Below are positions 1 through 38,223 of a stretch of 38,705 nt of DNA, piece after piece; position 1 is the first letter of the stretch, and the number at the start of each line of letters is the position of its first letter. The position numbers and the translations under genes are program-made. The notes beneath the pieces are model-generated. The model was not told the DNA's origin. It searched no databases and saw nothing but the letters and a program-made list of their open reading frames with translations. Source of the DNA: Thermoanaerobaculia bacterium (GTDB taxonomy: Bacteria > Acidobacteriota > Thermoanaerobaculia > Gp7-AA8); assembly GCA_017883215.1 (NCBI GenBank), contig JADGOA010000001.1, forward strand, positions 1 through 38,705, given 5' to 3'.

Positions 1-18
1 TTTCTGGTTTCTGGTTTC
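1..18 (+). repeat. Truncated heptad array TTCTGGT x2 plus TTCGG abutting the tRNA 5' end (window edge)
   Basis: T TTCTGGT TTCTGGT TTCG, followed by the tRNA from position 19. The partner arm, if any, lies outside the window. Confidence 0.5.
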
Positions 19-108
19 GGAGAGATGGCCGAGTGGCTTAAGGCGCACGCTTGGAAAGCGTGTGTACGTTAACCCGTACCGTGGGTTCGAATCCCACTCT
101 CTCCGCCA
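19..108 (+). tRNA. tRNA-Ser (anticodon GGA), class II with long variable arm, CCA encoded
   Basis: Cloverleaf is readable by eye. Acceptor GGAGAGA/TCTCTCC; anticodon stem CACGC/GCGTG around loop TTGGAAA; variable arm GTACG..CGTAC; T-arm GTGGG-TTCGAAT-CCCAC; discriminator G then CCA. Confidence 0.93.
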
Positions 109-186
109 CTCCGCCGGCAAGACCGCGGGAATCGAAAAACCTGGCGCGCGGGATTTTCGGCTCTCCATTTCTCATTTTCCGTGTCA

Positions 187-317
187 GGTCCGCTGGGATG
201 AGCCCGGGTCCTGTGCAGCAGGCGCACCGAACCTCGTCAGGTCCGGAAGGAAGCAGCGATAAGGTGCTTCACCTGCGTGACACAGTCAGGCCTGGGCTCT
301 TCCGAGCGGACCTTTTT
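187..317 (+). ncRNA. ffs: Signal recognition particle RNA, small bacterial (4.5S-type); boundaries approximate
   Basis: Conserved domain IV motif GTCAGGTCCGGAAGGAAGCAGC at 236-257 with GGAA tetraloop. Flanks pair as a rod (GGTCCGCT 187-194 with AGCGGACC 305-312; GAGCCC with GGGCTC). T5 tract at 313-317. Canonical position just upstream of dnaX. Confidence 0.88.
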
Positions 318-325
318 GTCAGCGT

Positions 326-407
326 GTGGCGAGTCGCGAGTGGCGAGCAGGGGAACGGCCCGACGGGCAACCTACTCGCTACTGGCTACTCGCTACTCGC
401 TATACTC
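326..407 (+). repeat. Heptad-arm hairpin element A (GCGAGTR / TACTSGC family)
   Basis: 5' arm GTGGCGA GTCGCGA GTGGCGA (326-346). Loop around 354-370. 3' arm TACTCGC TACTGGC TACTCGC TACTCGC TATACTC (373-407). Arms pair at 17 of 21 positions by eye. Confidence 0.85.
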
Positions 408-415
408 ACCCACCC

Positions 416-2044
416 ATGTCTTATCAGGCCCTCGCGCGGAAGTACCGGCCGCAGCGCTTCAGCGACATCATCGGTCAGGACACGATCGTCCGGACGCTCC
501 AGAACGCCATCGAGAGCGGGCGCATCCACCACGCCTATCTTTTCTCCGGCGTTCGCGGTGTAGGGAAGACCACCGGGGCGCGCATCCTGGCCAAGGCCCT
601 GAACTGCGTCCACGGACCGACCATCGAGCCGTGCAACGAGTGCACGGCCTGCGTCGAGATCACCGAGGGCATCGATCTGGACGTGCGTGAGATCGATGCC
701 GCGACGTATACCGGCGTCGACAACATCCGCGAGTTGCGCGAGGCCACGCAGTTCCAGCCTGCCCGCGACCGTTACCGCATCTTCATCGTCGACGAAGCGC
801 ACATGCTCTCCACGCCTGCGTGGAACGCGCTGCTGAAGATCCTGGAGGAGCCGCCTGCGCACGTCATTTTCATGTTTGCGACGACCGAGGTGCACAAGGT
901 GCCGCAGACGATCCTCTCCCGGGTGCAGAAGTTCGCGCTCCGGAAGATCACGCTCGACGAACTGATCGCGCGTCTCGACGACATCGCCGGCAAGGAAGGC
1001 ATTCAGACCGACCGCGTCTCGCTGGAGATCATCGCCCGCAGGGGCGAGGGAAGCGTCCGCGACGCGCTCTCGCTGCTCGATCAGGTGATCGCATTCAGCG
1101 GCCGTTCCATCACGGCAGCCGACGTGGCTACCGTCCTCGGCCTTTCGGAGACGATCTTTTTCGCGCGGATCGTGGCCCTGATGGCCGACGGCGACCACTC
1201 CGGCATCCTGGAAGCGCTCCAGGAAGCGGCGGACATGGGACGCGATTTCAAGATGCTGTACCGCGACCTGCTCGGCTTCGTCCGCAACCTGCTGCTGATC
1301 GCCGGCGGGGCGAACGAATCGATGCTGGCCGCTTCGCCGGAGGATCTCGTGACGATCCGCTCGGTCTCGGACAGCTTCTCGTACACCGAGATTCTGCGCA
1401 TCGCCAATCTGCTGCTGCGCGACGACGAGACGGTGAACCGAGCCGAGCATCAACGGCTTGCGGTCGAGATCGCGCTCCTGAAGGCGGCCACGTTTCCGCG
1501 GCTGCGGGCCGTGGAGGATGTTCTCTCCGGCAGCGCCACGCCGGAGCGGCCGGCGCCAGCGGCCCGCCGCAGCGCCCCACCTGCAGAGTCGGCACCTCGT
1601 CCGCCCGCCTCCCGCGCCGCTGCATCTCCCTCAGCGAGATCTCAGAGTGCGCCGGCTGCAACGAAGGCCGCCGCAGAAGCTCCTCATCCGGTTCCGGAGG
1701 GCGCCGCCGACGTTTCCGCACTGATCGCGCGCCTTCAGAAGGCCAAGCCTCTCATCGCGACGTATCTCAGCAACGCGATCAGCGTGCGCAGGCAAGGCGG
1801 CCGCATCGCCTGGACTTTCGACGACTCGTTCTACGCCGACGCCGTCTCCGACGCCCGCGCCACGATCGAGCCGATCGCATCGGAAGTCTTCGGTGAGCCC
1901 ATCACGATCGAAGCGACGGCCGGTTCGCCTGCGCCCGCGGCGCGGCGCGCCGAAGACAAGCCCTCCGCACTCCGTGACGATCCCCTCGTCCGCGCGTTCC
2001 AGAAGCACCTCGGCGGCGAGATCGTCGACTCGAAAAAGCGTTAA
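416..2044 (+). CDS. dnaX: DNA polymerase III subunit gamma/tau
   Basis: [22 protein letters not shown]-terminus, [15 protein letters not shown] Walker A, Cys cluster [29 protein letters not shown] Walker B, SRVQKF sensor, Pro/Ala-rich linker and C-terminal domain. The ORF track starts at GTG 326, but 326-407 is a repeat hairpin, so ATG 416 is preferred. Confidence 0.95.
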
Positions 2045-2055
2045 GGAGACTCCAC

Positions 2056-2355
2056 ATGAATCCCAAACAGCTGATGAAACAGGTTCAGCAGATGCAGGCC
2101 CAGATGCAGCAGCGCATGGCCGAGCTGCGCGTCGAAGGAAGCGCCGGCGGCGGAATGGTGAAAGCGACCATGAACGGATCGAAGGATCTGCTGGCCGTTG
2201 TCATCGACAAGGAAGCCGTCGATCCGAACGACGTGGAGATGCTCCAGGATCTCGTCGTCGCCGCAGTGAACGAAGCCGCCCGAAAAGTCGACGAGGAAAT
2301 GCAGGGCCAGCTCGGCGCCATGACCGGCGGCATGAATATTCCGGGCCTCTTTTGA
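2056..2355 (+). CDS. ybaB: YbaB/EbfC family nucleoid-associated protein
   Basis: 99 aa with Q/M-rich N-terminus and the [35 protein letters not shown] pattern typical of YbaB. AAGGAG RBS at 2043-2048. Lies between dnaX and recR. Confidence 0.93.
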
Positions 2356-2356
2356 C

Positions 2357-2421
2357 GAGCGAGTGGCAAGTAGGGAAACCGGCGTTCTCTCCTACTCGCT
2401 ACTCGCTACTCGCTACTCGCT
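2357..2421 (+). repeat. Heptad-arm hairpin element B (same family as A)
   Basis: 5' arm GAGCGAGTGGCAAGTAGGGA (2357-2376). 3' arm TCTCC followed by TACTCGC x4 (2388-2421). 16 Watson-Crick pairs plus 2 G-U out of 20 in the inner register. Confidence 0.88.
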
Positions 2422-2426
2422 GAAAA

Positions 2427-3023
2427 ATGACAGCTCCTCCCTTAGCGAATCTCATCAACGAGCTCACCAAGCTGCCGGGTGTCGGCGGCAAGTCAGCGTC
2501 ACGTCTGGCGTACTGGATCCTGAAGCGTTCACCTGGAGAGGCGGAAGCGCTTGCTGCTGCCATCCTCGACGTGAAGCAGAAGATCTTCCGCTGCTCGATC
2601 TGCAACAACATGACGGACGTGGAACCGTGCGCGATCTGCACCGATTCGCGCCGCGATCCGACCGTCGTTTGCGTGGTGGAGGAAGCCTTCAACATCGCCA
2701 CGATCGAACAGACGCGCGAGTTCAAGGGGATGTTCCATGTCCTGCTCGGCGCGCTGTCGCCGCTGAAAGGGATCGGACCGCAGGATATCGACGTGGCCGG
2801 GCTCGTGAAGCGCGTCCAGGGGGGCTCGGTGCGCGAGGTGATCATCGCGACCAACCCGAACGTGGAAGGGGAGGCCACTGCGCTGTATATCGCGCAGCAA
2901 CTGCGGCCGATCGGCGTCAAGGCGACACGGCTCGCCTTCGGGCTGCCCGTGGGCGGCGATCTCGAATACGCAGACCAGGTGACGATGGCCAAAGCGCTCG
3001 AGGGTCGAAGAGAGATCGGGTAA
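2427..3023 (+). CDS. recR: Recombination protein RecR
   Basis: [20 protein letters not shown] helix-hairpin-helix, C4 zinc finger [16 protein letters not shown], Toprim region VCVVEE...[17 protein letters not shown]. Confidence 0.96.
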
Positions 3024-3024
3024 T

Positions 3025-3093
3025 GGGCAGTGCGCAGCAGGCAGTGGGCGGTGCGCAGGGGAAGACCGTTCCACTGCGCACTGCCCACTGCCC
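3025..3093 (+). repeat. Heptad-arm hairpin element C (GGGCAGT/GCGCAGY family)
   Basis: 5' arm GGGCAGT GCGCAGC AGGCAGT GGGCGGT GCGCAGG. Loop AAGACCGTT. 3' arm CCACTGC GCACTGC CCACTGC CC. Positions 3039-3061 pair with 3071-3093 at 20 of 23. Confidence 0.88.
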
Positions 3094-3121
3094 GTCGCGC
3101 TAGGTTCCTAAGTGTTTCCTG

Positions 3122-3130
3122 TGCTATACA
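3122..3130 (+). promoter_or_regulatory. Candidate extended -10 element TGcTATACA upstream of mglB
   Basis: TG at 3122-3123 and TATACA at 3125-3130, 35 nt upstream of ATG 3165. No convincing -35. Confidence 0.3.
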
Positions 3131-3164
3131 TTGCCGTCCGTTCCACGGGTACTGGTGACATCGA

Positions 3165-3665
3165 ATGGCCTCTCCTGATCTCGTGATGTACGAGGAGGAG
3201 TACCAGCAGATCAAGGACACGCTTCATCGTCTGCAGGTCGACTCCAACTCGAAAATCGTCTTTCTGGTCGACAAAAACGGCCAGCAGATCGCCTCAATGG
3301 GCGACATGCAGGGCGTCGACGCGACCTCCCTCGCCTCGCTGACGGCGGGGAACGTCGCCGCGACCGACGGACTTGCCAAACTCATCGGCGAAAAAGAGTT
3401 CTCCATCCTTTTTCACGAAGGGGAGAAGGACAACATCCACATCTCGCTGGTCGCCCAGCGAGTGATCCTCGTCGTCATCTTCGACGAGCGATCGTCACTC
3501 GGGTTGGTGCGGCTGCGGGTCAAGAAGGCCTCGGTTGAGCTCGAGCGGACATTTGAGGTGCTGCTGAAGAAGGCCGAAGCGGACCGGGGCAGTCTGGCAA
3601 ATCGCTTCGACTCGCCGTTCGCTGAGATCACAGACGAGGACATCGACAGCCTCTTCAGCGAATAG
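3165..3665 (+). CDS. mglB: Roadblock/LC7-domain protein, MglB-like GTPase-activating partner of MglA
   Basis: 166 aa with a Roadblock-like core ([13 protein letters not shown]...[19 protein letters not shown]...[15 protein letters not shown]) and an acidic C-terminal tail. Ends 5 nt upstream of mglA. Confidence 0.8.
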
Positions 3666-3670
3666 ACGCA

Positions 3671-4255
3671 ATGACCTTCATCAACTACGCCGCGCGGGAG
3701 ATCAACTGCAAGATCGTCTACTACGGCCCCGGCCTGTGCGGTAAGACGACCAACCTGCAGTGGATCTACGACAAGACCAATCCCCAGGCGAAGGGGAAGC
3801 TGATCTCGCTCGCCACGGAAACCGATCGTACGCTGTTCTTCGACTTTCTTCCCCTCGACCTCGGTACGGTCCGCGGATTCAAGACCCGCTTTCACCTCTA
3901 CACCGTCCCCGGCCAGGTGTTCTACGACGCCTCGCGCAAGCTGATCCTGAAGGGCGTCGACGGCATGGTGTTCGTCGCCGACTCGCAGGAAGCACGCATG
4001 GAAGCGAACGTGGAGTCGATCCAGAACCTCGACAGAAACCTCAAAGAACAGGGCTACGACCTTCAGACCGTGCCGTATGTCCTGCAGTTCAACAAGCGCG
4101 ATCTGCCGACGGCGCTGGCGATGGACGAGATGTATCGGCAGCTCAATTTCAAAGGGGAGCCAACCTTCGAAGCGGTGGCCATGAGCGGGACCGGCGTCTT
4201 CGACACGCTCAAGGCGATCGCCAAGCTCGTGTTGCTCGAGCTGAAAAAGAAGTGA
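3671..4255 (+). CDS. mglA: Ras-like small GTPase MglA
   Basis: Very close to my recollection of Myxococcus MglA: [42 protein letters not shown], the MglA-type [10 protein letters not shown] switch II, and NKRD. Confidence 0.95.
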
Positions 4256-4400
4256 TCTCGCGACCGGCGATGCTCGCCCGCCGCATGATCGAGTACTGAG
4301 CGGAGCAGGAGCCGCTGACCGGCGTCCGCGCGCATGGCCAGAGAGCCGACGCGCTGAGCCGTTCCTGTTTGCGACCACTCCGACGATAGAATCGCCCCAA

Positions 4401-5444
4401 ATGCGTCAGGGTTTGAACATCGTCGCCATCGGCGGCGGCACCGGATTGTCGACCCTTCTCCGCGGATTGAAGACGTACGTCGGCGCGGAAGGGGCGTGGT
4501 CGATCGCACGGCTTGCTGCGATCGTCACAGTCACCGACGAGGGCGGATCCTCCGGTGTGCTGCGGCGGCAGTTCGGGATGCTCCCGCCTGGAGACGTCCG
4601 CAACTGCATCGTCGCTCTCGCCGAAGAAGAGCATTTGCTGTCACAGGTATTCAACTACCGCTTCGCCGAGGAGTCGGAGTTCAAAGGGCATTCGCTGGGC
4701 AATCTCCTGCTGATGGCCATGACGGAGATCACCGGCAGCTTCGAGGACGCGGTACTGGCGGCCTCGGAAGTCCTGAACATCCGCGGCGAGATCTTTCCCT
4801 CGACACTGCAGGATGTGCGGCTCCGCGCGACGCTGGAGGACGGCACGGTTCTGATCGGCGAGGTTGCGATCAGCGGCTCTTTCCTCGGAGAAAAAGCGAG
4901 CACCAAACCGCGGCATGCACGCATCGCCACCGTCGCCATCGATCCACCTGACGCGGCCCCGGTTCAGCGGGCCCTCGATGCGCTCGCTGCAGCGGACCTC
5001 ATCATCATCGGGCCGGGCTCGCTCTACACTTCCATCCTGCCGAACCTCGCCATCCGTCCGCTCGCCGAGGCGCTGCGGAACTCGCGGGCGTTGCGCGTCT
5101 ACGTCTGCAACGTCATGACACAACCCGGCGAGACCGACAATTACGCGGCGCAGGACCACCTCAACGCCATCGTGGAGCACGCCGGTCTCGTCGTCGACGT
5201 CATGGTCATGAACGGGCGCAGGCCATCCGATGCGATCGTCGCGGCATACGCGGTCGAAAACCAGCATCCCGTCGAATTCGACGCTGCGAAAGTGCACGAG
5301 CTCGGCGTCACGCCTTTCTTCGGCGACGTCATCGCAGAGGGGAATTACGTGCGTCACGATTCGCCGGCGCTGGCAGATACGATCTTCCGGCTCTACGACC
5401 GCTACGGCCGCGCCAGAGAAAGGATGCGGCGAAGCGAAGGATGA
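4401..5444 (+). CDS. yvcK: YvcK/CofD-family (UPF0052) gluconeogenesis factor-like protein
   Basis: IVAIGGGTGLSTLLRGLK N-terminal motif, VTVTDEGGSSG, GHSLGNLLL and IIIGPGSLYTSILPNL are typical of the YvcK/CofD family. Confidence 0.85.
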   Translation: MRQGLNIVAIGGGTGLSTLLRGLKTYVGAEGAWSIARLAAIVTVTDEGGSSGVLRRQFGMLPPGDVRNCIVALAEEEHLLSQVFNYRFAEESEFKGHSLGNLLLMAMTEITGSFEDAVLAASEVLNIRGEIFPSTLQDVRLRATLEDGTVLIGEVAISGSFLGEKASTKPRHARIATVAIDPPDAAPVQRALDALAAADLIIIGPGSLYTSILPNLAIRPLAEALRNSRALRVYVCNVMTQPGETDNYAAQDHLNAIVEHAGLVVDVMVMNGRRPSDAIVAAYAVENQHPVEFDAAKVHELGVTPFFGDVIAEGNYVRHDSPALADTIFRLYDRYGRARERMRRSEG

Positions 5445-5451
5445 GCCATTG

Positions 5452-5493
5452 GGCATGACGCCTGACGCAGTCACGGCGCTCAGGAGTCATGCC
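5452..5493 (+). repeat. Hairpin element K (NNNNTGA heptads)
   Basis: GGCATGA CGCCTGA CGCAGTC / ACGGCGC TCAGGAG TCATGCC. Stems of 8, 5 and 3 bp with small bulges. Confidence 0.7.
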
Positions 5494-5519
5494 TGATCCC
5501 TCATCCCGGGAGCTCACAT

Positions 5520-6920
5520 ATGAACGAGAACCTCGAAGTCATCATCCTCGCGGCCGGTCTGGGCACGCGAATGAAGTCGGCCACCATCAAGATTCTTCAT
5601 CACGCCGCCGGCCGCCCCATCATCGATTACGTTCTCGACCTCGCGGCAGAAGTGTCCGGCCGCAATCCCATCGTCGTGGTCGGGCATCAACGCGAAGCCG
5701 TTCAGCAGGCCATCGGCGACCGAGCGCGGTTCGCCGTTCAGGAGCAGCAACTCGGAACCGGGCACGCCGTCATGCAGGCGGCGCAGCTCCTGGAGAGCGA
5801 ACACACTCCTGGCGGCACGGTCCTGATCCTCTCCGGCGATGTGCCGCTCACGCGCAGAGAAACGCTGCAGTCGCTCGTCGAGCAGCACCGGCGTGAGGCG
5901 AACGCGCTGACACTGCTGAGCATGAAACTCGATCAGCCGGCCATGTACGGCCGGATCGTGCGCGACGCCGACGGCACCGTGATGCGCATCGTGGAAGCGA
6001 AAGATGCCAGCGACGCGGAGAAGGCCATCCAGGAAGTGAACGCCGGGATCTACGTCTTCGACAGCGCGGACCTGCTGGCGAATCTCCGTCAGCTGTCGAC
6101 CGACAACACTCAAGGCGAGTATTACCTGACCGACCTGATCGGCATGATTCGCAACGCCGGCAAGCGCGTCGGGGCGGTCGTGGCCGCAGATCCGGTGGAA
6201 GCGCTGGGCGTGAATTCGCGAGGCGAGCTGGCGATCGTCGAAGCCGAAATTCAGAAGCGGGTCGTGCAGAAGCTCATGACCGAAGGAGTGACGTTCCGCA
6301 ATCCGACGACCGTGGTCGTCGACTCGACCGTGAGCATCGGCGCGGACTCGGTGGTCTATCCGTTCGTCACGATCGAGGGGACGACGCGCATCGGCGAGCG
6401 TTGCGTCATCGAGCCCGGCGCGCACCTGATCAACGTGACCATCGGCAACGACGTCCACGTGAAGACCGGCACGGTAGCCGAGGAGAGCACGATTGCCGAT
6501 TCGTCGGTGGTCGGGCCGTACGCCCATCTCCGCCCCGGCACGAAGCTCGGCGAGCACGTGAAGGTCGGCAACTTCGTGGAGACCAAGAAGGCCGTGTTCG
6601 GCGCCGGCGCGAAAGCGTCGCACCTCTCGTACATCGGCGACGCTGAGATCGGTGCGGACGTGAACATCGGTGCGGGAACCATCACCTGCAACTACGACGG
6701 CGTCAACAAGCACAAGACGGTGCTCGAGGACGGCGTGTTCATCGGCTCGGATACGCAACTGGTGGCGCCCGTCAGGATCGGCCGCGGCGCCTATGTCGGC
6801 GCGGGATCGACGATCACCATGGACGTGCCGGCGGATGCTCTCGCCCTCTCGCGCGTTCCCCAGAAGATCGTCGAGGGCTGGGCAACGCGCCGCCGTGAAA
6901 AGCTGAAGAAGCCGAAATAG
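5520..6920 (+). CDS. glmU: Bifunctional UDP-N-acetylglucosamine pyrophosphorylase / glucosamine-1-phosphate N-acetyltransferase
   Basis: ILAAGLGTRMKS nucleotidyltransferase motif, LILSGDVPL, YYLTD, then a long left-handed beta-helix of hexapeptide repeats ending CNYDGVNKHKT. Confidence 0.95.
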   Translation: MNENLEVIILAAGLGTRMKSATIKILHHAAGRPIIDYVLDLAAEVSGRNPIVVVGHQREAVQQAIGDRARFAVQEQQLGTGHAVMQAAQLLESEHTPGGTVLILSGDVPLTRRETLQSLVEQHRREANALTLLSMKLDQPAMYGRIVRDADGTVMRIVEAKDASDAEKAIQEVNAGIYVFDSADLLANLRQLSTDNTQGEYYLTDLIGMIRNAGKRVGAVVAADPVEALGVNSRGELAIVEAEIQKRVVQKLMTEGVTFRNPTTVVVDSTVSIGADSVVYPFVTIEGTTRIGERCVIEPGAHLINVTIGNDVHVKTGTVAEESTIADSSVVGPYAHLRPGTKLGEHVKVGNFVETKKAVFGAGAKASHLSYIGDAEIGADVNIGAGTITCNYDGVNKHKTVLEDGVFIGSDTQLVAPVRIGRGAYVGAGSTITMDVPADALALSRVPQKIVEGWATRRREKLKKPK

Positions 6921-7005
6921 CGCCATTTGCCCGCTATGTCGGCTGCTGAAAGACCTGCAGGACGCGCTGCTGCGCTTCGCTGCGTTCACGTCCGCTTGCA
7001 GCCGC

Positions 7006-8468: not shown

Positions 8469-12458
<3,990 letters not shown>

Positions 12459-22406: not shown

Positions 22407-22412
22407 ATCGTG

Positions 22413-22441
22413 TTGACTTTACTGGGTGCCGGTCCAATAAT
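22413..22441 (+). promoter_or_regulatory. Candidate sigma-70-type promoter TTGACT-17 nt-AATAAT
   Basis: TTGACT at 22413-22418 and AATAAT at 22436-22441, with a 17-nt spacer. Lies about 58 nt upstream of ATG 22499, which has a GGAGGGA RBS. Confidence 0.45.
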
Positions 22442-22498
22442 CCCGATGCCTTACCAGATCATCAGGATACGGGTCAACCTACACCATCGGAGGGAGTT

Positions 22499-23869
22499 AT
22501 GGCCGTGAGGGGCGAGGAAGTCGCGGGCTCAATCGAGGCGCACGTACGCGAGTCCATCGAGCGGATGGTGAGCGAGATCCGCTCGTCTGTGGAGGACGTT
22601 CGCGGTGTCGTCGACTCCCAGCTCAAGGCCGCCCTTCAGAGCATTCAGGCTGACGTCAATGCCGTGTCGTTCCTGCCGTTCGTCCAGAAATCGATCTCGG
22701 AGCTGGAAGAGGCGTTCGCGGCAGCCAAGCCGGCGGCTGCGGCGGCAGGCGACGGTGGGCGTCTGAAACGGGCTGTGCAGGTCGTCGAGCAGGGCAAGTC
22801 TCAGGTCGACGTGCTCAATGCGCTCCTCGAGCAATGTCTCGAGTTCGGTTCACGCGCGGCCCTTCTGATCCTGCGCGGGGAAACGTTCAGCGGATGGAAA
22901 GGCGTTGGTTTCGCCGCACACGGCGGCAACGACGAGATGATCAAGCGTTTCAACGCCGCGCCGGGGCTCATCCCGCAACTCGACGAGGTCCTGCGGAACG
23001 AGCGCGTCGCGCTGTGGGACGGGGTCAATCTTTCGACGCGTTTCGGCGTCGGCGCCTCGGAGCGCGCCATCCTCGTGCCGATGGTGATCAAGGACAAAGT
23101 CGCAGCCGCTGTCTACGTCGATGCCGTCGCCGAAGAATCGGCGAAGCTCGATCCTGCGTCGATCGAGTTGCTCGTCTTCACCACCGGCCTGCTGGTCGAC
23201 ACGCTGGCGATCCGCAAGAAGTCACCGTCGCCATCGCTTTCGTCCGACAAGGCAGCCGCAGCCCAGCAGCCGAGACCGGCGGCCGCCGCGCCACAGCCGA
23301 GACCCGCTCCCCCCGCTCCGGAGTCGCCGCCAAGCGCGGAGTCGACCGTGGCGTTCAGTGCGCAGCAGATTCGCGACATGATGTCGACGCCCCAAAGGCC
23401 GGCCGCTCAACCCGTTCCGGCTCAACCTGTCCAACCTGTCGCACCGAGGCCCGTAGCGCCTCCGGCGCCCGTACAAGCGCCGGCTCCTCGCGCCGCCGCG
23501 CCCGTGACTGCGCACGCTGTCGAAGCCGCAGCGCACGAGGATCGGCCATCGACACAGTACATTCCGCCGGCGGGCGTCGTCGCTCGAGGGGCCGCTGCCG
23601 GCGCGCCGAGCGAGGACGTGAAGCGACACGACGAGGCGCGCCGCTTCGCCCGTTTGCTCGTCTCCGAGATCAAGCTCTACAACGAATCGAAGGTCGATCA
23701 GGGACGCAAGAACAAGGATCTGTACGAGCGGATGAAAGAAGACATCGATCGAAGCCGGCAGATGTACGACGAGCGCATTCCCGAAGAAGTGCGCAAGGCG
23801 TCGAACTACTTTTACGACGAGCTCGTCCGGATCCTGGCCGACGGCAACGCCGACGCGCTGGGGTTGTAG
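22499..23869 (+). CDS. Hypothetical protein: coiled-coil N-terminus, GAF-like middle, long Pro/Ala-rich linker, conserved-looking helical C-terminal domain
   Basis: ATG 22499 with GGAGGGA RBS; the upstream part of the ORF (22346-22498) translates the repeat element. C-terminus FARLLVSEIKLYNESKVDQGRKNKDLYERMKEDIDRSRQMYDERIP looks like a conserved module, but I cannot name it. Confidence 0.75.
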   Translation: MAVRGEEVAGSIEAHVRESIERMVSEIRSSVEDVRGVVDSQLKAALQSIQADVNAVSFLPFVQKSISELEEAFAAAKPAAAAAGDGGRLKRAVQVVEQGKSQVDVLNALLEQCLEFGSRAALLILRGETFSGWKGVGFAAHGGNDEMIKRFNAAPGLIPQLDEVLRNERVALWDGVNLSTRFGVGASERAILVPMVIKDKVAAAVYVDAVAEESAKLDPASIELLVFTTGLLVDTLAIRKKSPSPSLSSDKAAAAQQPRPAAAAPQPRPAPPAPESPPSAESTVAFSAQQIRDMMSTPQRPAAQPVPAQPVQPVAPRPVAPPAPVQAPAPRAAAPVTAHAVEAAAHEDRPSTQYIPPAGVVARGAAAGAPSEDVKRHDEARRFARLLVSEIKLYNESKVDQGRKNKDLYERMKEDIDRSRQMYDERIPEEVRKASNYFYDELVRILADGNADALGL

Positions 23870-23897: not shown

Positions 23898-23950
23898 GGT
23901 CACGAGGTGAGCTCGTGCCTTTGACGTCAAGACCTCATGACCTCGTGACC
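23898..23950 (+). repeat. Hairpin element G (11-bp stem; 8-nt direct repeat in the 3' arm; palindromic loop core)
   Basis: GGTCACGAGGT (23898-23908) pairs with ACCTCGTGACC (23940-23950). The 3' arm reads ACCTCATG ACCTCGTG. The loop contains the 10-bp palindrome TTGACGTCAA (23921-23930). Confidence 0.7.
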
Positions 23951-24017: not shown

Positions 24018-26312
24018 ATGCCGCGACGTCTACGGCGCAAATGGCTCGTCCTGGGCGTGACGATCCCCATCGCGATCGGGTCGATCGCGCTGGGCATCTA
24101 CTTCCTCGTTTGGGAGCGGAAGTCGCACGAAGAGACGCGTCAGCACGCAAAGCCCGAGGCTCCGCCGGATCTGCAGAAGCTTCGCAACACATATGCGGCC
24201 GGCCTGGAGGCGGTTCAACGCGGGGACGGCGTCGATGCCGTCAAACAGTTCAGCTCCTTTACCTTTCACGACCGCGCTGTCGAGGAGTACCGGCTCTACT
24301 ACCTCGCCGTGGGCCAGCAGCTGATGCACGACGCCAAGCGGGCGCGCTTGACGCTGGCATTGCTGGAGGCGCGACAGCCGGCGTTCGTCTTCGCCGACGA
24401 CGCCGGTCTGACGTTGGCCGGTCTCTACGGAGGTGTCGCGGACTGGCGCCACACAGCCGGCCAATACGCCGCGGTGGCGTCCCGGACCGACTCGCCCGCA
24501 GTTGCGGCCGCGGCGCGCTGGGGGGAGGTCGAATCACGATTCTTCAGCGGCGACGTCGCGGCATCGATCGCCGCGGCGCGCCAGATCGCCATCAAGAGTC
24601 CGCGATCATCGCAGGCCGCATCGGCACTGGGGCTGCTGCGCGGCATCGACGGCACCGGGCCGGACGGCATGGTGCCGTTCTCGCCTGCCGAGCGCCTGGA
24701 GCGAGCGGTCTCTCTTCTGCGCGATGGTGACCCGCAGTCCGCGTTCGGCGAGCTGAGCGCACTGGAGCCGCTTGCTCCCTCCTCGATTCGCGATGCCGTC
24801 CGACTCAACGAAGGCCTCGCCCTCAACAGCCTCCATCGATACGAGGACTCGAACAAGATTCTCGACATGCTCGCATCCGGCCCGTTCAGGATCGCCATTC
24901 CGGCGATCTACACCGCGTCGAAGAACTACCGAGCCATTGCTGCCTCCATCAATCCGATAGTCATAAAGACCATCGTGCAGCGAAAGCAGGTCGGCAAGCG
25001 GAAGGTGACGGTCGGCAAAGGGGAGAAGCGCCGAACGATCATCCGGCCAAGATTCGCGAACGTGAAGAAGAACGTGCAGCTCGTCGACCTCGCGAAGAAG
25101 GCGAAGAAAGACGAGGCCGACCGCCTGGCGACGGAACGGTTGAAGGACCTGCTGCAGATCGAGACCGTCGCGCCCGAGGTGCGGCTGGAGGTGCTGAAAA
25201 CGCTGATCGGCATCACCGACGCGAAAAATCAGGATGCGTACGAACAGGAGCTGGTCGGCGAAGTGGTGAAGATCGATCCCTACGCGGATCCGGCTCTGCA
25301 GCACTTCTGGGACAAGGCCTGGGCGGCGTATTCCCGCGGTGACCTCAATGGCGCGAAGCCTCTGTTCCGCTTCATCGCCGACACCTACGGCAATCCGAAC
25401 GTAAAGCGGCAGGCGGAATACTGGTACGCCAGAACCATCGAGCGCCTCGGTGCGAAGGAAGAATCGGCCGCGATCTACCGCCGGCTCGCTTCCGCACCGT
25501 ACGAGGACATCTACTCCGTCCACTCCGTCGGCCGCGGCGCGCCCCGCGGCGTGGCCACGACGAATCCGCTGAAGATGAACCGTCCCGACTGGCGGGACAT
25601 CGCCGAACAGACCATGCCGGGCGGCCTGCGGCTGGCTTACGAGCTGACGGCCCTGAACGACATGCGCGACGCGCAGCTGGAGATCCGCAAGAATGCGGGC
25701 TTCGTGAACCGGCACTTCACCAACGCGCTGCTGGCCGATCTGTACAACAGCGCCGGCAACGCCGACCTCACGTATCGAACCATCCGCGCCGCGTTTCCGC
25801 AGCTCGCCACCGTCGAACAGGACGCCGTCCCACCGTACTTCTTGAAAATCTACTACCCGGTTCGGTACGAGGACGCCATCCTGAAAGACTCGCGTCGATT
25901 CGACGTCGACCCCTATCTGGTCATGGCGCTCATTCTTCAGGAGAGCTATTTCAACCCCAAAGCGAAGTCGCGGGTGGGAGCAACCGGCCTGATGCAACTC
26001 ATGCCCGGCACCGGGAAAGAGCTCGGCCAGAAGCTGCACGGCCGCTTCAGCATCACCCGCCTGAACGATCCTGATACGAACATCGAGCTCGGTACGTACC
26101 ACCTGCGGCACATGATTCAGATCTTCGCCGGCCACGTTCCGCTCGCCGTGGCGTCCTACAACGCCGGACAGGGAAACGTTCTGAAGTGGCGGAGGGCGGC
26201 CGCTTCGAAGCCGATGGACGAGTTTCTGGAATCGATTCCGTTCCCTGAAACACGCAACTATGTCAAACGGGTCACGCTTCTCCGCTCGTCATACGCACGC
26301 ATCGCGCAGTAA
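24018..26312 (+). CDS. Soluble lytic murein transglycosylase (Slt70-like) with N-terminal TM/signal anchor and superhelical domain
   Basis: C-terminal SLT domain LILQESYFNPKAKSRVGATGLMQLMPGT with catalytic Glu, and AVASYNAGQGNV. Long helical repeat region upstream. Confidence 0.88.
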   Translation: MPRRLRRKWLVLGVTIPIAIGSIALGIYFLVWERKSHEETRQHAKPEAPPDLQKLRNTYAAGLEAVQRGDGVDAVKQFSSFTFHDRAVEEYRLYYLAVGQQLMHDAKRARLTLALLEARQPAFVFADDAGLTLAGLYGGVADWRHTAGQYAAVASRTDSPAVAAAARWGEVESRFFSGDVAASIAAARQIAIKSPRSSQAASALGLLRGIDGTGPDGMVPFSPAERLERAVSLLRDGDPQSAFGELSALEPLAPSSIRDAVRLNEGLALNSLHRYEDSNKILDMLASGPFRIAIPAIYTASKNYRAIAASINPIVIKTIVQRKQVGKRKVTVGKGEKRRTIIRPRFANVKKNVQLVDLAKKAKKDEADRLATERLKDLLQIETVAPEVRLEVLKTLIGITDAKNQDAYEQELVGEVVKIDPYADPALQHFWDKAWAAYSRGDLNGAKPLFRFIADTYGNPNVKRQAEYWYARTIERLGAKEESAAIYRRLASAPYEDIYSVHSVGRGAPRGVATTNPLKMNRPDWRDIAEQTMPGGLRLAYELTALNDMRDAQLEIRKNAGFVNRHFTNALLADLYNSAGNADLTYRTIRAAFPQLATVEQDAVPPYFLKIYYPVRYEDAILKDSRRFDVDPYLVMALILQESYFNPKAKSRVGATGLMQLMPGTGKELGQKLHGRFSITRLNDPDTNIELGTYHLRHMIQIFAGHVPLAVASYNAGQGNVLKWRRAAASKPMDEFLESIPFPETRNYVKRVTLLRSSYARIAQ

Positions 26313-26314
26313 AT

Positions 26315-26387
26315 GGAAGTGATCGGAAGTGATCAGTCAGAATACGCGGAAGCCACTGATCACCGATCACTGATCACTGATCACTTC
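26315..26387 (+). repeat. Heptad-arm hairpin element H (GATC-rich AGTGATC/ACTGATC family)
   Basis: 5' arm GGAAGTGATCGGAAGTGATCAGTCAG. Loop about AATACGCGGAAGC. 3' arm ACTGATC ACCGATC ACTGATC ACTGATC ACTTC. Stems of 9 and 10 bp with a 3-nt bulge. Six GATC sites. Confidence 0.88.
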
Positions 26388-31935: not shown

Positions 31936-32019
31936 GTAGGGACGCGCAGCAGCGCGTCCGCAACTCTCGTCGGCCCTCCCGCCCACCGGAGCTGCGGGCG
32001 CGCTGCTGCGCGCCCCTAC
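31936..32019 (+). repeat. Twin-hairpin element J (two mutually complementary 8-bp/tetraloop hairpins 36 nt apart)
   Basis: GTAG-GGACGCGC-AGCA-GCGCGTCC (31936-31959) and GGGCGCGC-TGCT-GCGCGCCC-CTAC (31996-32019). The arms are reverse complements except for one compensated base pair. Confidence 0.85.
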
Positions 32020-35582: not shown

Positions 35583-35612
35583 TTCATCCTGAACACTTTG
35601 CCGGACTACAAT
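35583..35612 (+). promoter_or_regulatory. Candidate promoter TTCATC-18 nt-TACAAT upstream of the OPT transporter
   Basis: TTCATC at 35583-35588 and TACAAT at 35607-35612. ATG 35675 is preceded by an AAGGAGA RBS. Confidence 0.35.
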
Positions 35613-35674
35613 GGCCCACCATTTTTGCACGCCGCGCCGCGGCTGCGCACATCAGACGCCGTCAAGGAGACCGG

Positions 35675-38017
35675 ATGAGTTCTGTACCGCAAGGTATGCC
35701 AGACATGGTCGGTGACAAACCGATGAAAGGCATCTTCACGCCTTACATCGCAGCAAGCACCAGGATGCGCGAACTGACGATCACGCCGCTGATCATCGGC
35801 ACGATCCTCGGGATGATCTTCGGCGCCTCCTCTCTGTACCTGGTGCTGAAAGTCGGTCTGACGGTGAGCGCCTCCATCCCGGTGGCGGTCATCTCGGTCA
35901 CACTCTTCCGCATCCTGCACAAGTTCGGCGGGCGGGACGCCACCATTCTCGAGAACAACATCGTGCAGACGGCCGGGTCAGCGGGCGAATCGATCGCCTT
36001 CGGCGTCGGTGTGACGATGCCGGCCATCCTGATCCTCGGATTCGATCTCGAGTTCACGCGCGTCATGCTGGTGGCCGTCCTGGGCGGCCTGCTCGGCATC
36101 CTCATGATGATTCCGCTGCGCAGCGCGCTCATCGTCGCGCAGCACGGCGTGCTCAAGTACCCGGAAGGGACCGCGTGCGCCGAGGTCCTGAAGGCAGGCG
36201 CGTCGCCGGAATCGCGAGCAGCGGCGTCCGAGGAGGCGAAGGCGGAGCAGGCGGCTCACGGCGGGGCGGAGACCAGCGCCAAGACCATCTTCACCGGATT
36301 TGGCATCGGCCTCGTTTACCAGACGCTGATGACCGGCTTCCGGGCGTGGAAGGACGTTCCCGAGAAGGTCTTCGGAAAGCCATTCGAAGCCGCGTCCATC
36401 GCCGCGGAGATCTCGCCGGCGCTGCTCGGCGTCGGCTACATCATCGGGCTGCGCATCTCCGCCATCATGTGCGGCGGCGGCGTGCTCGCCTATCTCGTCC
36501 TCATTCCGATGATCAAGTTCTTCGGCTCGCCCATCCCGGGCATTCTCCCGCCGGGCACGATGCCGATCAGCCAGATGGGCCCCTCGCAGATCCGCGGCGC
36601 GTACGTTCTCTATATCGGCGCCGGAGCCGTGGCCGCCGGCGGCATCATCAGCGTCTTCCGTTCGCTGCCGATGATCTGGCACGGCATGAAGGGCGGCATG
36701 CGCGACGTCCGCGCGGGCGGCGTGCACGAGGAGACCGGCGAAGTGCTGCGCACCCATCGCGACCTGCCGTTGAAGGTCGTGTTGATCGGCATCATTCTCC
36801 TGATCGTTCTGATCGCCTTCGCGAACCCGCTGTATGCCGGCGGCGTCGGACCGATCCCGCGCCTGGCCGCGGCGATTCTCATCATCGTCTTCGGTTTTCT
36901 CTTCGTGACCGTGTCGTCGCGCCTGACCGGCGAGATCGGATCGTCTTCAAACCCCATCTCCGGCATGACCGTGGCCACTCTCCTGCTGACGTGCCTGATC
37001 TTCCTGATGCTCGGCTGGACGGGAAAGAACTACTACGTAACGGCGCTGTCGCTCGGCGCAATCGTCTGCATCGCGTCGTCGAATGGCGGAACGACGTCGC
37101 AGGCGTTGAAGACCGGTCACCTGCTCGGCGCCACTCCACGCGCGCAGCAGATCGCGATTCTGGTCGGCTCGATCGCTTCGGCTCTCGTCCTGGGGCCGAT
37201 CCTCCTCAGCCTCAACAACTCCGCGACGGTTTGGGTCAAGATCGATCACGCCTCGTTCAGAGCGCCGGCGAACGAGATCTCGTCGTATACCGAGACAGTG
37301 GCCGGCCGCCAGGTCGGGATCGATACCACGCCGTATCACGTCTTCCACAAAGTCGACGAGACCGGCAGCCCCGCCGGCAAGTACCTGGTCAATGCCGACG
37401 GCACGCCGGTTTACCGGATCGACCCCGGCATCAACGGCACCGTGACACAGCTCCCCGACGGCACGCACGTGACGAAGTTCGACGCGCCCAAGGCCACGCT
37501 GATGTCGTACATCATCAAAGGCATCCTCAACCGTGAGCTGCCGTGGGGACTGGTGCTCCTCGGCGTCATGATCGCGGTCGTGCTCGAGCTCGCCGGAATC
37601 CCCTCGCTGGCCTTCGCGGTCGGCGTCTATCTTCCGCTCTCCTCCTCCAGTCCAATTCTCATCGGCGGGCTGGTTCGCTGGGCGGTCGACAAGTGGATCG
37701 CCAAGAAATTCGCCGGGCGCAATCTCTCCGAAGACCAGCTCGTGGCCGAAGGCGACAAGAGCGCCGGCGTTCTGATGGCCTCCGGCTACATCGCCGGCGG
37801 CGCCATCGCCGGAATCATCATCGCTTTCCTCGCCGGCGTGCCATCGATGTCGAAGGTCAACGACTGGATCCAGAGCTTCTCGAAGGGCAATCCGGCTTTC
37901 GAGGGTCCCCATGCCGACCTTCTGTCGATGATTCCGTTCGCCATTCTCGTCATCCTGCTCTACCTGGCCGGACGCGAAGTCATCCTTGCCCATCGCCAGG
38001 AGAAACCTGCCAGCTGA
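35675..38017 (+). CDS. OPT-family oligopeptide transporter
   Basis: 780 aa with about 16 hydrophobic segments. ELTITPLIIGTILGMIFGASSLYLVLKVGLT, NIVQTAGSAGESIAF and SNPISGMTVATLL motifs are typical of the OPT superfamily. Confidence 0.85.
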   Translation: MSSVPQGMPDMVGDKPMKGIFTPYIAASTRMRELTITPLIIGTILGMIFGASSLYLVLKVGLTVSASIPVAVISVTLFRILHKFGGRDATILENNIVQTAGSAGESIAFGVGVTMPAILILGFDLEFTRVMLVAVLGGLLGILMMIPLRSALIVAQHGVLKYPEGTACAEVLKAGASPESRAAASEEAKAEQAAHGGAETSAKTIFTGFGIGLVYQTLMTGFRAWKDVPEKVFGKPFEAASIAAEISPALLGVGYIIGLRISAIMCGGGVLAYLVLIPMIKFFGSPIPGILPPGTMPISQMGPSQIRGAYVLYIGAGAVAAGGIISVFRSLPMIWHGMKGGMRDVRAGGVHEETGEVLRTHRDLPLKVVLIGIILLIVLIAFANPLYAGGVGPIPRLAAAILIIVFGFLFVTVSSRLTGEIGSSSNPISGMTVATLLLTCLIFLMLGWTGKNYYVTALSLGAIVCIASSNGGTTSQALKTGHLLGATPRAQQIAILVGSIASALVLGPILLSLNNSATVWVKIDHASFRAPANEISSYTETVAGRQVGIDTTPYHVFHKVDETGSPAGKYLVNADGTPVYRIDPGINGTVTQLPDGTHVTKFDAPKATLMSYIIKGILNRELPWGLVLLGVMIAVVLELAGIPSLAFAVGVYLPLSSSSPILIGGLVRWAVDKWIAKKFAGRNLSEDQLVAEGDKSAGVLMASGYIAGGAIAGIIIAFLAGVPSMSKVNDWIQSFSKGNPAFEGPHADLLSMIPFAILVILLYLAGREVILAHRQEKPAS

Positions 38018-38066
38018 TCCAGTTGGAGCACGGCCGTTCGGTCGCTGCTCCTGTTCGACCCCGGCG

Positions 38067-38092
38067 AAACGGCCCGCTCCGGCGGGCCGTTT
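38067..38092 (+). terminator. Intrinsic terminator hairpin (usable from either strand)
   Basis: AAACGGCCCGC-TCCG-GCGGGCCGTTT, a perfect 11-bp stem with a 4-nt loop. A-run 5' and T-run 3'. Lies 50 nt after the OPT stop. Confidence 0.7.
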
Positions 38093-38150
38093 GGCCTAAC
38101 TCCGTCATCCTGAGAGGCTGTGCAGAAATCGGATAGAAGTGAACAGCCGA

Positions 38151-38223
38151 TGTGGCACAGACACTCCTGTCTGTGCTTCTGCAGCGCATTCCGCCCGGCA
38201 CAGACAAGAGTGTCTGTGCCACA
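38151..38223. repeat. Twin-hairpin element I
   Basis: TGTG-GCACAGACA-CTCC-TGTCTGTGC (38151-38176) and G-GCACAGACA-AGAG-TGTCTGTGC-CACA (38197-38223). 26-nt inverted repeat with 1 mismatch. Confidence 0.85.

Follow-up and report, generated by a model that had tools for sequence, protein, structure and literature searches.

Intergenic hairpins with heptanucleotide-repeat arms in a Thermoanaerobaculia genome: a probable new case of a repeat class that is known and still unexplained

The window analyzed here, the whole 38,705-nt stretch of DNA from a Thermoanaerobaculia bacterium, opens at the contig edge with a truncated TTTCTGG array (positions 1–18; TRF period 7, 2.6 copies, 100% match) that lies directly 5′ of tRNA-Ser (19–108). 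The spacer between the SRP RNA (202–300) and the start of dnaX (416) holds hairpin E1 (326–402; predicted ΔG −52.1 on the plus and −41.8 on the minus strand), with a 5′ arm of GGCGAGT/CGCGAGT/GGCGAGC and a 3′ arm of 4.4 copies of CTACTCG that ends 13 nt 5′ of the dnaX ATG. E2 (2357–2421; ΔG −31 to −34) fills the spacer between ybaB and recR, from the stop at 2353–2355 to the start at 2427, and its arms read GCGAGTG GCAAGTA GGGAAAC on the 5′ side and 4.3 perfect copies of CTACTCG on the 3′ side. E3 (3024–3100; ΔG −59) begins 1 nt past the recR stop and combines TGGGCAG/TGCGCAG/CAGGCAG/TGGGCGG with 3.3 copies of CCACTGC. A conserved, promoter-like box is visible 3′ of E3. E4 (5449–5496; ΔG −34.1) occupies the spacer between a cofD-like gene and an NTP-transferase gene.

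In the second half of the window, the long hairpin E5 (20422–20520; ΔG −73.8 and −62.9) lies between two minus-strand genes, with its end 1 nt from the stop of 20522–21187(−); its arms include GGCGAGTGGCGG and CCGCCTACTCGCC, and a small separate stem-loop sits within its loop. E6 (21582–21628; ΔG −33 to −36), downstream of the stop of 21639–22292(−), has the arms GGGCGGT GGGCAGT and CACTGCC CACGTCC. E7 (22299–22407) lies between divergent genes and pairs GCGAGTA GCGCGTC GCGCGTG with 4.1 copies of TACTCGC; its C-rich arm, in sense orientation, is positioned 9 nt upstream of the GTG start of the minus-strand gene, and its right arm falls inside the longest ORF (22346–23869), yet upstream of the start called in close relatives. 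E8 (26313–26387; ΔG −30 to −32) fills the spacer from the stop of a transglycosylase gene (26310–26312) to the start of a MobB-like gene (26389), with two copies of GGAAGTGATC followed by AGTCAG in the 5′ arm and 4.6 copies of CACTGAT in the 3′ arm. Sense C-rich arms adjoin four starts in the window, those of dnaX, recR, the MobB-like gene, and 21639–22292(−). Start codons lie 3–13 nt from the stem base, and the genes downstream have no Shine-Dalgarno sequence.

Our own scan for period-7 arrays (at least three units, at least 85% self-match) found eight, compared with 0.42 in dinucleotide-type shuffles, and all eight fall in non-coding DNA, which makes up 7.1% of the window; the same scan returned zero or one array for each of the periods 5, 6, and 8–12. 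TRF places period-7 arrays at 1–18, 329–347, 372–402, 2392–2421, 3071–3093, 22376–22404, and 26354–26385, and an inverted-repeat scan pairs arrays at 3017–3100, 20422–20520, and 22301–22405. The arrays form seven clear hairpins, the majority of which adjoin stop or start codons, and every element is predicted to fold into a very stable hairpin on both strands (RNA ΔG −30 to −74 kcal/mol). Loop sequences and arm lengths are unrelated among the copies, which have only the heptad unit in common. The elements take up the few non-coding bases between genes, adjoining stop and start codons. As they were found again in independent ENA, Logan, and JGI assemblies, they are not an assembly artefact.

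These results bear out much of an earlier note on this DNA, which had proposed a class of 7-nt-armed intergenic hairpins set by architecture, with different heptads sharing the same hairpin and gene-end placement, and had called for the comparison with shuffled sequence. Its families were correctly drawn: GCGAGTR/TACTCGC at 326, 2357, and 22299 with a relative at 20437, GGGCAGT/ACTGCCC at 3025 and 21583, AGTGATC at 26315, and the truncated array at 1–18. The placement that it described, 1–3 nt after a stop, holds for 2357, 3024, 26315, and, on the minus strand, 20520, and LLATRYSLLA is indeed a spurious peptide that the elements produce in the ORF track. The pairing in registers shifted by 7 nt that it anticipated is real for asymmetric elements: in folding, shortening the 3′ arm of either E2 or E8 by 7–14 nt shifts ΔG by less than 3 kcal/mol, and the extra 3′ units of both are energetically redundant. 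It did not recognize the elements as a described REP, BIME, MITE, or terminator family, and they are indeed distinct from REP, MITE, Rfam families, and canonical terminators: their loops are unrelated, an Rfam search of the window returned only the tRNA and SRP RNA and no match to the elements, and no T-tailed terminator was called at the four elements in 1–6000, the region scanned.

Three of its at least 12 inverted repeats are of another kind. The inverted repeat at 186–313 is the SRP RNA itself, and two others are REP-doublet-like (REPIN-like) and contain no heptads. The first of these (31936–32019; ΔG −70 to −78) consists of two inverted copies of GTAGGGRCGCGCAGCAGCGCGYCC, a lone degenerate copy of which is found at 6960–6983(−), and the second (38135–38239) consists of two inverted copies of GTGGCACAGACACTCYTGTCTGTGC, a 25-mer that forms two more doublets in a related contig (L133). 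The NNNNTGA element that the note had placed at 5452, E4, is a good hairpin, but it falls below the three-unit, 85% threshold of our scan, and its weak 7-nt periodicity makes its membership of the class doubtful. An unpaired 8-nt array, 3.6 copies of TGACCTCA at 23922–23950, folds weakly (ΔG −9 to −11) and does not belong to the hairpin class; it is missing in a 90% relative (L206).

Among near-identical strains (98–99.6% identity), indels in the heptad elements are mostly whole units of 7, 14, or 21 nt. Over 7–8 kb shared with contigs that are 99.3–99.6% identical, the sole indels are one unit of E2, the 3′ arm of which has four units in the window and three in six near-identical contigs, and one additional 3′ unit of E1 in one contig (L006). 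In a more distant strain (L208; 98.2% identity, 22 kb compared), the 5′ arm of E7 is shorter by exactly 21 nt, E8 has gained 14 nt (two units) in its 5′ arm and 2 nt in its 3′ arm, and E6 differs by a 1-nt indel. Most length changes in the heptad arms are therefore exact multiples of 7 nt, a hallmark of replication slippage. The loss of three units from one arm of E7, with the other arm unaltered, fits neutrality better than function.

Comparison of orthologous spacers, another step that the earlier note had advised, revealed both presence/absence and co-varying arms. At the ybaB-recR site, stop and start overlap in L126, L127, L132, and L141, hairpins of GGTTGCN, GATCGTG, GTTGGCG, or 8-mers occur in other relatives, and a local seed for E2 was not found at this site in relatives. 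The SRP-dnaX site is empty in L126, L132, L136, and L141 and carries ATTGAGA/TCTCAAT in L127 and ATTGAAA/TTTCAAT in L130. Since a single substitution in the unit has here spread through both arms, some of the families that the note had called unrelated may be diverged relatives, although different heptads do share the architecture. L126, L127, and L130 have no E3 at the orthologous position, where TAG or TAA is followed by CGCTAGG, and the E4 site has a spacer of about 5–14 nt in L131 and L134, the two relatives that aligned. In L206, E5 has remodelled arms, E6 is missing with just CCGCGCACTG left, E7 has a perfect (GCGAGTA)x3, and the arms of E8 co-vary, CGGTGAT occurring with CACCGAT. Where L136 carries four units per arm, L135 has one GTTGCC/GGCAA palindrome, which may be an in-situ seed or a remnant. 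Across related genomes, heptad hairpins thus come, go, and replace one another in a given spacer, and a change of unit leaves the two arms largely complementary.

This turnover raises the possibility of non-autonomous mobile elements, MITE- or REPIN-like, that would be moved by an enzyme in trans with the heptads as its iterated recognition sites. Orthologous sites differ in presence/absence, one heptad (GCGAGTR/TACTCGC) is present at four window sites with no local seed at ybaB-recR, two near-identical 56-nt elements lie at two spacers of L136, terminal inverted repeats would show the fixed polarity described below, and true REP doublets occur in the same genome. However, the window copies share only their unit, clear target-site duplications are absent (the stop and start codons by themselves dictate the TGA repeats on either side), no transposase gene lies in the annotated neighbourhoods, and arms alter one unit at a time in place. 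A single genome moreover uses a wide variety of units that lack a shared core, and some units resemble ancestral local sequence. We regard mobility of this kind as unlikely.

We further surveyed 441 kb of relatives, chosen by RecR alone, in which 83% of the DNA is coding and gene calls are crude (GC3 and longest ORF). This sample contains 80 period-7 arrays, compared with 13, 10, and 5 for periods 6, 8, and 9; 49 of the 80 have an inverted partner, and 69 of the 80 are intergenic or at the 5′ edge of an ORF. Elements lie between convergent (22), co-directional (30), and divergent (4) genes and sit a median of ~7 nt away from the gene end, a pattern that resembles that of REP. Enrichment between convergent genes and depletion between divergent ones, location a few nt past stop codons, and GC-rich, very stable stems are also what terminators or pause sites that need no U-tract, I-shaped or bidirectional, would display at the gene ends of a high-GC genome, and one cyanobacterial STRR hairpin has been suggested to act in termination (PMC2670836). 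Such a role is nevertheless quite unlikely, as the elements in 1–6000 have no T-tail, E2 and E8 fill operon-internal spacers, at the E2 site relatives have an overlapping stop and start and recR has no visible promoter, and E1 stands between the SRP RNA and the dnaX start codon; termination there would silence the downstream dnaX and recR.

The hairpins have a fixed polarity on either strand, the G-rich arm being 5′ and the C-rich arm 3′. Of 32 elements, 29 carry a G-rich 5′ arm (p = 2.6e-6), and across phyla 66 (TACTCGC)n arrays have their G-rich partner upstream, compared with 2 that have it downstream (p = 1.6e-17); non-heptad hairpins show no such bias (20 versus 14). In co-directional contexts, the sense strand is not preferentially the more stable one (14 versus 14), so there is no positive sign of selection on RNA over DNA.

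The sense C-rich arms at four window starts, upstream of genes with no Shine-Dalgarno sequence, could also be iterated binding sites for a protein, acting on RNA (S1-, Csp-, or CsrA-like) or DNA, with the hairpin secondary; C-rich arrays directly 5′ of starts would then be translational or transcriptional control sites. In Beggiatoaceae, direct TAACTGA repeats occur shortly before start codons (MacGregor 2015, PMC4679880), and deletion of heptamer repeats alters the regulation of a recO reporter in Nostoc. Against this, several unrelated units coexist in one genome, units are highly diverse and 36 elements have no common core motif, polarity and pairing persist where two genes converge and a start codon is absent, and relatives carry different unit sequences at the same site, which makes binding sites a very unlikely basis for the class. 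G-quadruplexes, proposed for the Xanthomonas and Nostoc repeats, would draw on the G-rich 5′ arms that are the rule and on the several GGG tracts of E3 and E6, and GGGAATC repeats do form them in vitro (PMC4692102). G3 tracts are missing from the majority of units, both in the window and in relatives (GCGAGTG, AGTGATC, GAATTGA, and GATCGTG are examples), and the complementary arm is always nearby and would out-compete a quadruplex; we consider this explanation extremely improbable.

The best overall explanation, which we favor as probable with modest confidence, is that the elements are hairpin-forming pairs of heptanucleotide microsatellites that originated by slippage and are tolerated or used. 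They would grow in situ from short palindromes or single units, arm-to-arm templated copying would keep the arms complementary, and elements would also spread or convert between sites within the genome. Slippage alone explains neither the 7-nt step nor the G-to-C polarity, and it fails for the L136 copies and for the unit shared by four sites with no local seed for E2.

By analogy, a contribution to mRNA 3′-end protection and translational coupling can be suggested tentatively, and we consider it doubtful. Because they lie inside operons, the elements would be transcribed and fold into very stable, REP-like stem-loops. At gene 3′ ends these would protect the upstream message, and between tightly coupled genes the hairpin would keep the stop within a few nt of the start that follows. 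A ribosome ending the upstream gene would melt the 5′ arm and leave the C-rich 3′ arm free to serve as a leader with no structure, so that coupling could survive the insertion. A change in unit number would alter stem or leader length, and expression could thereby drift or be tuned.

In bacteria, heptanucleotide SSRs are over-represented and, among long SSRs with units of 5–11 nt, make up the most abundant class, with polymerase slippage in steps of ~7 nt as the proposed cause; they are found in non-pathogenic species with large genomes, and slippage makes them variable (Mrazek, Guo & Shah 2007, as summarized in PMC4679880). The elements here are likewise heptanucleotide and slippage-variable; the arrays in that summary are direct, and inverted pairing, polarity, and replacement at orthologous sites are not mentioned there. 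The TAACTGA repeats of Beggiatoaceae, cyanobacteria, and Bacteroidetes are also 7-nt tandem, intergenic, a few nt at most from starts, and scattered across phyla but, unlike here, have a single unit sequence and are almost always direct (169 direct sets, one inverted; PMC4679880).

REP/BIME/REPIN elements are, as here, extragenic palindromes just past stops, common in convergent and co-directional contexts and rare in divergent ones, with species-specific sequence at conserved positions. REP elements stabilize upstream mRNA and affect translation near stop codons. They have a fixed consensus of 20–40 nt that is headed by GTAG or GTGG and lacks internal tandem periodicity, whereas heptad hairpins have only their unit in common and change by unit slippage; the REP-doublet-like elements of the window look quite unlike them.

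Closer counterparts are the 70–75 GGGAATC array pairs of Xanthomonas, which are in convergent inverted orientation, stem-loop capable, and 89–93% intergenic, with the upstream ORF ~28 nt away (Rehm et al. 2015, PMC4692102). For these and the Nostoc GGGGAYT repeats, no function was found (PMC4692102). Both share with the present elements 7-nt tandem units, ~90% intergenic location very near the upstream ORF, often two convergent arrays able to form a stem-loop, and length and sequence that differ between close relatives, and the polarity is the same, with the G-rich array following a gene on the coding strand or preceding one on the non-coding strand. In contrast, the elements here belong to a different soil lineage with several unit types in one genome (GCGAGTR, GGGCAGT, AGTGATC), most of them unable to form G-quadruplexes, and many fill operon-internal spacers exactly from stop to start.

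Filamentous cyanobacteria carry 7-bp STRR hairpins between genes such as hupS-hupL, for which transcript stabilization or translational coupling has been proposed (PMC2670836). In those spacers (STRR, hupS-hupL, nif), as here, 7-bp tandem units build operon-internal hairpins that vary between close relatives and are always structured. The units seen here differ from the STRR units CCCCAGT, TTGGTCA, and CAACAGT. To our knowledge, STRR have been described only in filamentous cyanobacteria; their sequences were reportedly presented by Mazel in 1990 and by Jackman and Mulligan in 1995. With this architecture already published for cyanobacteria and Xanthomonas, the claim of the earlier note to something undescribed fails. 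The heptad hairpins are, with high confidence, the counterpart of the cyanobacterial STRR hairpins and the convergent GGGAATC repeats of Xanthomonas, and the window would add a new example to a known, still unexplained repeat class.

The window has a GC content of 64.5% over its 38.7 kb of bacterial contig and encodes a tRNA-Ser (19–108; Rfam match 19–105), a bacterial small SRP RNA (202–300; Rfam), dnaX, ybaB, recR, an MglB/MglA-like pair, and ordinary housekeeping genes; soil and rhizosphere metagenomes are the source of the related and near-identical contigs compared with it. TRF places period-7 arrays at 1–18, 329–347, 372–402, 2392–2421, 3071–3093, 22376–22404, and 26354–26385, and an inverted-repeat scan returns arm pairs at 3017–3100, 20422–20520, and 22301–22405. 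Under a uniform criterion (at least three units, at least 85% self-match), the window contains 8 period-7 arrays vs 0.42 in shuffles, and 0 or 1 array for each of periods 5, 6, and 8–12. All 8 lie inside the non-coding 7.1% of the window, with units GCGAGTR, GGGCAGT, AGTGATC, and TTTCTGG. The candidate heptad hairpins, inverted repeats with arms of 7-nt tandem units, are E1 (326–402), E2 (2357–2421), E3 (3024–3100), E4 (5449–5496), E5 (20422–20520), E6 (21582–21628), E7 (22299–22407), and E8 (26313–26387). Folding of either strand gives very stable structures, with dG of −30 to −74 kcal/mol per element. The array excess, the confinement to non-coding DNA, and the stable folds bear out the earlier note's observation of 7-nt-periodic intergenic hairpins. 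Its placement of them 1–3 nt after a stop codon holds for E2, E3, and E8, and the end of E5 lies 1 nt from a stop codon; the distance to the next start codon is 13 nt for E1, 5 nt for E2, and 3 nt for E8.

Since the contig opens within the TTTCTGG array at 1–18, heptad hairpins may be break points of short-read assemblies. Under the longest-ORF rule, heptad arms are taken into dnaX (to 326; 326–415) and into the gene that ends at 23869 (extended to 22346; 22346–22411). Start codons can thus be miscalled and spurious repeat peptides or ORFs predicted, a practical concern for annotation. An 8-nt array, TGACCTCA repeated 3.6 times, occupies 23922–23950 in the spacer upstream of a transglycosylase gene; it has no pairing partner and is absent from L206, a relative at 90% identity.

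The grouping of at least 12 inverted repeats into one class stands for the heptad hairpins and fails elsewhere. The hairpin at 5452 (E4) is genuine, with weak 7-nt periodicity, and the elements at 31936–32019 and 38135–38239 are REPIN-like REP-doublets: inverted doublets of a 24–25-nt palindromic unit with the GTAG or GTGG head of the REP consensus. The first pairs two inverted GTAGGGRCGCGCAGCAGCGCGYCC copies, both of which are palindromes in their own right; it is also present in L208, the matching spacer of L206 having a weak anchor and an extra gene, and a single degenerate GTAGGGRCGCGCAGCAGCGCGYCC copy lies between convergent genes at 6960–6983. The second consists of inverted pairs of GTGGCACAGACACTCYTGTCTGTGC, which recur in the related contig L133 at 2401–2473 and 6631–6738; their occurrence at unrelated sites there suggests that this is a mobile REP family.

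The heptad hairpins themselves do not conform to a REP, BIME, or REPIN assignment, as their copies have only the unit in common, differ in loops and arm lengths, and lack a 20–40-nt palindromic consensus with a GTAG/GTGG head. For a MITE origin, filled and empty sites were compared for target-site duplications, with an ambiguous outcome, since the stop and start codons by themselves impose the flanking TGA repeats; the elements carry no conserved internal sequence. No transposase, and so no RAYT (Y1 transposase) that would tie the hairpins to REP elements, was found in the annotated neighborhoods (the 38.7-kb contig and short related contigs). Stable hairpins past stop codons also invite interpretation as intrinsic (Rho-independent) terminators, but none of the 4 elements within 1–6000 was called terminator-like; a terminator and promoter scan of that interval flagged no heptad element, and its 4 terminator-like sites, all elsewhere, compare with 3.9 expected from shuffles. 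An Rfam search at gathering thresholds, a check named in the earlier note, matched only the tRNA and SRP RNA in the window and no heptad element. The proposal that the hairpins fall outside known REP, MITE, and terminator families is thus upheld, as regards terminators for the 4 elements in 1–6000.

Comparison with close relatives shows that heptad hairpins act as microsatellites. Six contigs are 99.3–99.6% identical to the window over 3.5–8.3 kb; the 3′ arm of E2 has 4 units in the window vs 3 in all six, and the only other indel is in E1, which has one heptad more in L006 than in the window. L208 is 98.2% identical over 22 kb, with 321 substitutions and 11 indels; exactly 21 nt are missing from its E7 and 14 nt are extra in its E8, and E6 and E8 also show 1- and 2-nt indels. 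The remaining L208 indels comprise four in-frame coding repeats and three in other spacers (a 68-nt insertion and two short ones). Among the coding repeats, those at 21206–21274 (12-nt), 18355–18397 (9-nt), and 23423–23440 (9-nt) each differ by one unit, the first encoding the acidic, serine-rich tail of a Zn-ribbon protein. The 68-nt insertion, at window position 32073 in the spacer upstream of uvrA, contains the palindrome GAAGAAACCTCATAAATACAGGAGGTTTCTT and is a non-heptad hairpin insertion polymorphism. In L206, E6 is absent and the arms of E5, E7, and E8 are remodeled. The arm loss of E7 in L208 is unmatched by the other arm, a caution that mere tolerance may account for many copies.

Over longer distances, orthologous spacers reveal presence or absence of hairpins at two junctions and a matched change of both arms. 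In L126, L127, L132, and L141, the ybaB stop codon shares bases with the recR start (TAGTG or TTTTGACC); the same junction is wholly a GGTTGCN/GCAACC hairpin in L129, L131, L133, and L136, a GATCGTG/CACGATC hairpin in L137, a GTTGGCG/CGCCAAC hairpin in L140, and a hairpin of 8-mers in L130. The N-terminus of RecR is invariant whatever the spacer holds; its start codon is GTG or TTG at overlapping junctions and ATG wherever a hairpin is inserted. A promoter-like box, GCTAGGTTCCTAAGT...TGTGCTATACAT (3097–3135), lies upstream of the MglB-like gene and is kept in most relatives regardless of the insert between it and the recR stop. At the SRP RNA–dnaX junction, four relatives have a spacer of 34–37 nt without a hairpin, and these spacers hold a TACTCGC-like box, TAGACTCGCT or TATACTCG. 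The arms at this junction are ATTGAGA/TCTCAAT in L127 vs ATTGAAA/TTTCAAT in L130, a single substitution in all units of both arms, and the arms therefore evolve in concert. The mglA–cofD spacer contains a lone GTTGCC/GGCAA palindrome in L135 vs four units per arm in L136, and L136 carries near-identical, loop-less 56-nt GGTTGCC/GGCAACC palindromes 1.7 kb apart (2455–2511 and 4213–4268), each occupying a stop-to-start spacer, one at mglA–cofD and the other at ybaB–recR. Taken with the junction turnover, the L135/L136 contrast and the second L136 copy suggest that growth or shrinkage in situ and spread or conversion between sites both occur.

The preference for period 7 extends to 80 contigs of relatives (441 kb) picked solely for encoding a RecR relative. 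This set contains 80 period-7 arrays, 13 of period 6, 10 of period 8, and 5 of period 9; inverted partners no more than 150 nt away accompany 49 of the 80 period-7, 8 of the 10 period-8, and none of the 13 period-6 arrays. Sixty-nine of the 80 period-7 arrays fall outside coding interiors, with 83% of the DNA coding, and the median gap from heptad element to gene end is about 7 nt or less. The units are very varied (e.g., GAATTGA, GGATTTT, GTGCTGA, GATCGTG, GTTGGCG, and GGGAAAC), and a search of 36 units gave no common core apart from G-richness, which rules against a suspected ACTG/AGTG core. Scanning 185,579 species genomes for (TACTCGC)×3, three copies of the C-rich 3′-arm unit of E1, E2, and E7, found at least 119 stretches; the matches listed include Rhizobiales, Gemmatimonadales, Chloroflexia, Planctomycetota, Vibrio, cyanobacteria, and others. 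Most of these TACTCGC arrays lie on the 3′ side of a hairpin, opposite a 5′ arm of degenerate GCGAATA, GGGAGTA, or GGGAATA units. Mesorhizobium and Xanthomonas are further carriers of such elements.

These hairpins are polar. In the RecR-chosen set, 29 of 32 elements have a G-rich 5′ arm and a C-rich 3′ arm on either strand (p = 2.6e-6), and in 66 of the TACTCGC matches listed the G-rich partner lies upstream of the array, compared with 2 where it lies downstream and 40 that lack it (p = 1.6e-17). Intergenic hairpins without heptads serve as a control and show no bias (20 vs 14), compared with 16 vs 2 for heptad-overlapping ones. The convergent orientation and strand preferences of Xanthomonas repeats agree with this polarity (PMC4692102). 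Gene context was considered as its source: G-rich arms tend to follow stops (31:15) and C-rich arms to precede starts (15:8). However, this trend is weaker than the intrinsic polarity, which persists between convergent genes (22 of 56 elements, the others being 30 co-directional and 4 divergent, a REP-like distribution).

A broader reading, which we consider improbable, is that one sequence-independent polar process common to many phyla makes intergenic hairpins in 7-nt steps, which are later co-opted as slippage-tuned devices for translational coupling and mRNA stability. It leans on the fixed G-to-C polarity, missing from ordinary hairpins. The candidate process would be fold-back or break-associated synthesis, with the G-rich strand always running 5′ to 3′ toward the dyad, in a geometry like that of telomeres or of KOPS and Chi motifs in convergent arrangement; on this reading, the 7-nt quantum and the repeated, independent refilling of one stop-start junction would be marks of a mechanism not yet described. 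Readings of the units as HutP-like (UAGNNNN)3, Chi-like, KOPS-like, or telomere-like are speculation, each fitting one unit or the geometry and not the unit diversity.

In terms of function, the anatomy fits two established mechanisms as candidate roles, translational coupling and a REP-like protective effect on the upstream mRNA; roles in transcript stability and translational coupling have been proposed for cyanobacterial STRR hairpins (PMC2670836). The relevant anatomy is that hairpins take up whole stop-to-start spacers within operons, at sites where the genes of relatives overlap; for coupling, the upstream ribosome would have to melt the structure. No Shine-Dalgarno sequence was found at the downstream starts. 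Redundant 3′ units leave stem stability unchanged on folding, and extra ones could extend an unstructured C-rich leader at equal stem stability. When folding energies of the sense and antisense strands are compared, 30 co-directional TACTCGC hairpins split 14 vs 14, with no signal of RNA-level selection, and the window elements show no consistent strand preference.

These observations bear on the cause and function of the bacterial 7-nt repeat excess, a question standing since at least 2007. As cited in PMC4679880, Mrazek (2007) described heptanucleotide repeats as outnumbering every other class of long SSR in many bacteria and proposed polymerase slippage over about 7 nt as the cause. The phenomenon now extends to a high-GC soil lineage, and TACTCGC itself is shared by many phyla; most period-7 arrays take the hairpin form, with a strict G-first polarity missing from ordinary hairpins. 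The extension to this lineage, the sharing of TACTCGC among phyla, the hairpin majority, polarity, junction refilling, and two-arm change favor a structural or mechanistic cause over a protein that binds a specific sequence. The ybaB–hairpin–recR junction, for which 3-unit alleles, 4-unit alleles, and empty sites all occur in nature, offers a clean experimental system. For annotation, the elements are a source of spurious ORFs and mis-called starts (dnaX at 326; 22346).

The earlier note's interpretation is partly supported, its proposal of an undescribed class giving way to published systems of the same architecture. Cyanobacterial 7-bp STRR repeats form intergenic hairpins (PMC2670836), and Xanthomonas carries about 185 GGGAATC-type arrays, 89–93% of them intergenic and ~28 nt from the upstream ORF, with 70–75 convergent inverted pairs; the arrays are transcribed and differ from species to species, with no function known for them (PMC4692102). 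TAACTGA heptamers adjoin start codons (PMC4679880); further heptamers likewise lie beside start codons. The window elements display the features of the STRR-like/Xanthomonas-type class: tandem 7-nt units (TRF period 7 at seven places), an intergenic bias near gene ends, convergent inverted array pairs able to form a stem-loop, and variation in unit number and sequence (indels of 7, 14, and 21 nt). The described units GGGAATC, GGGGAYT, and STRR1–3 were not found among the window units, and a literature search found no papers on the exact window arrays; as unit identity defines named sub-families, the mismatch does not exclude membership of the class. The novelty of the heptad hairpins is thus modest. 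To our knowledge, a polarity this strong and general, set against a non-heptad control, the refilling of one stop-start junction by different units, and concerted two-arm change have not been shown together before. Matching the published heptad systems, the window elements therefore belong to a known kind, in which their units and host lineage are new.
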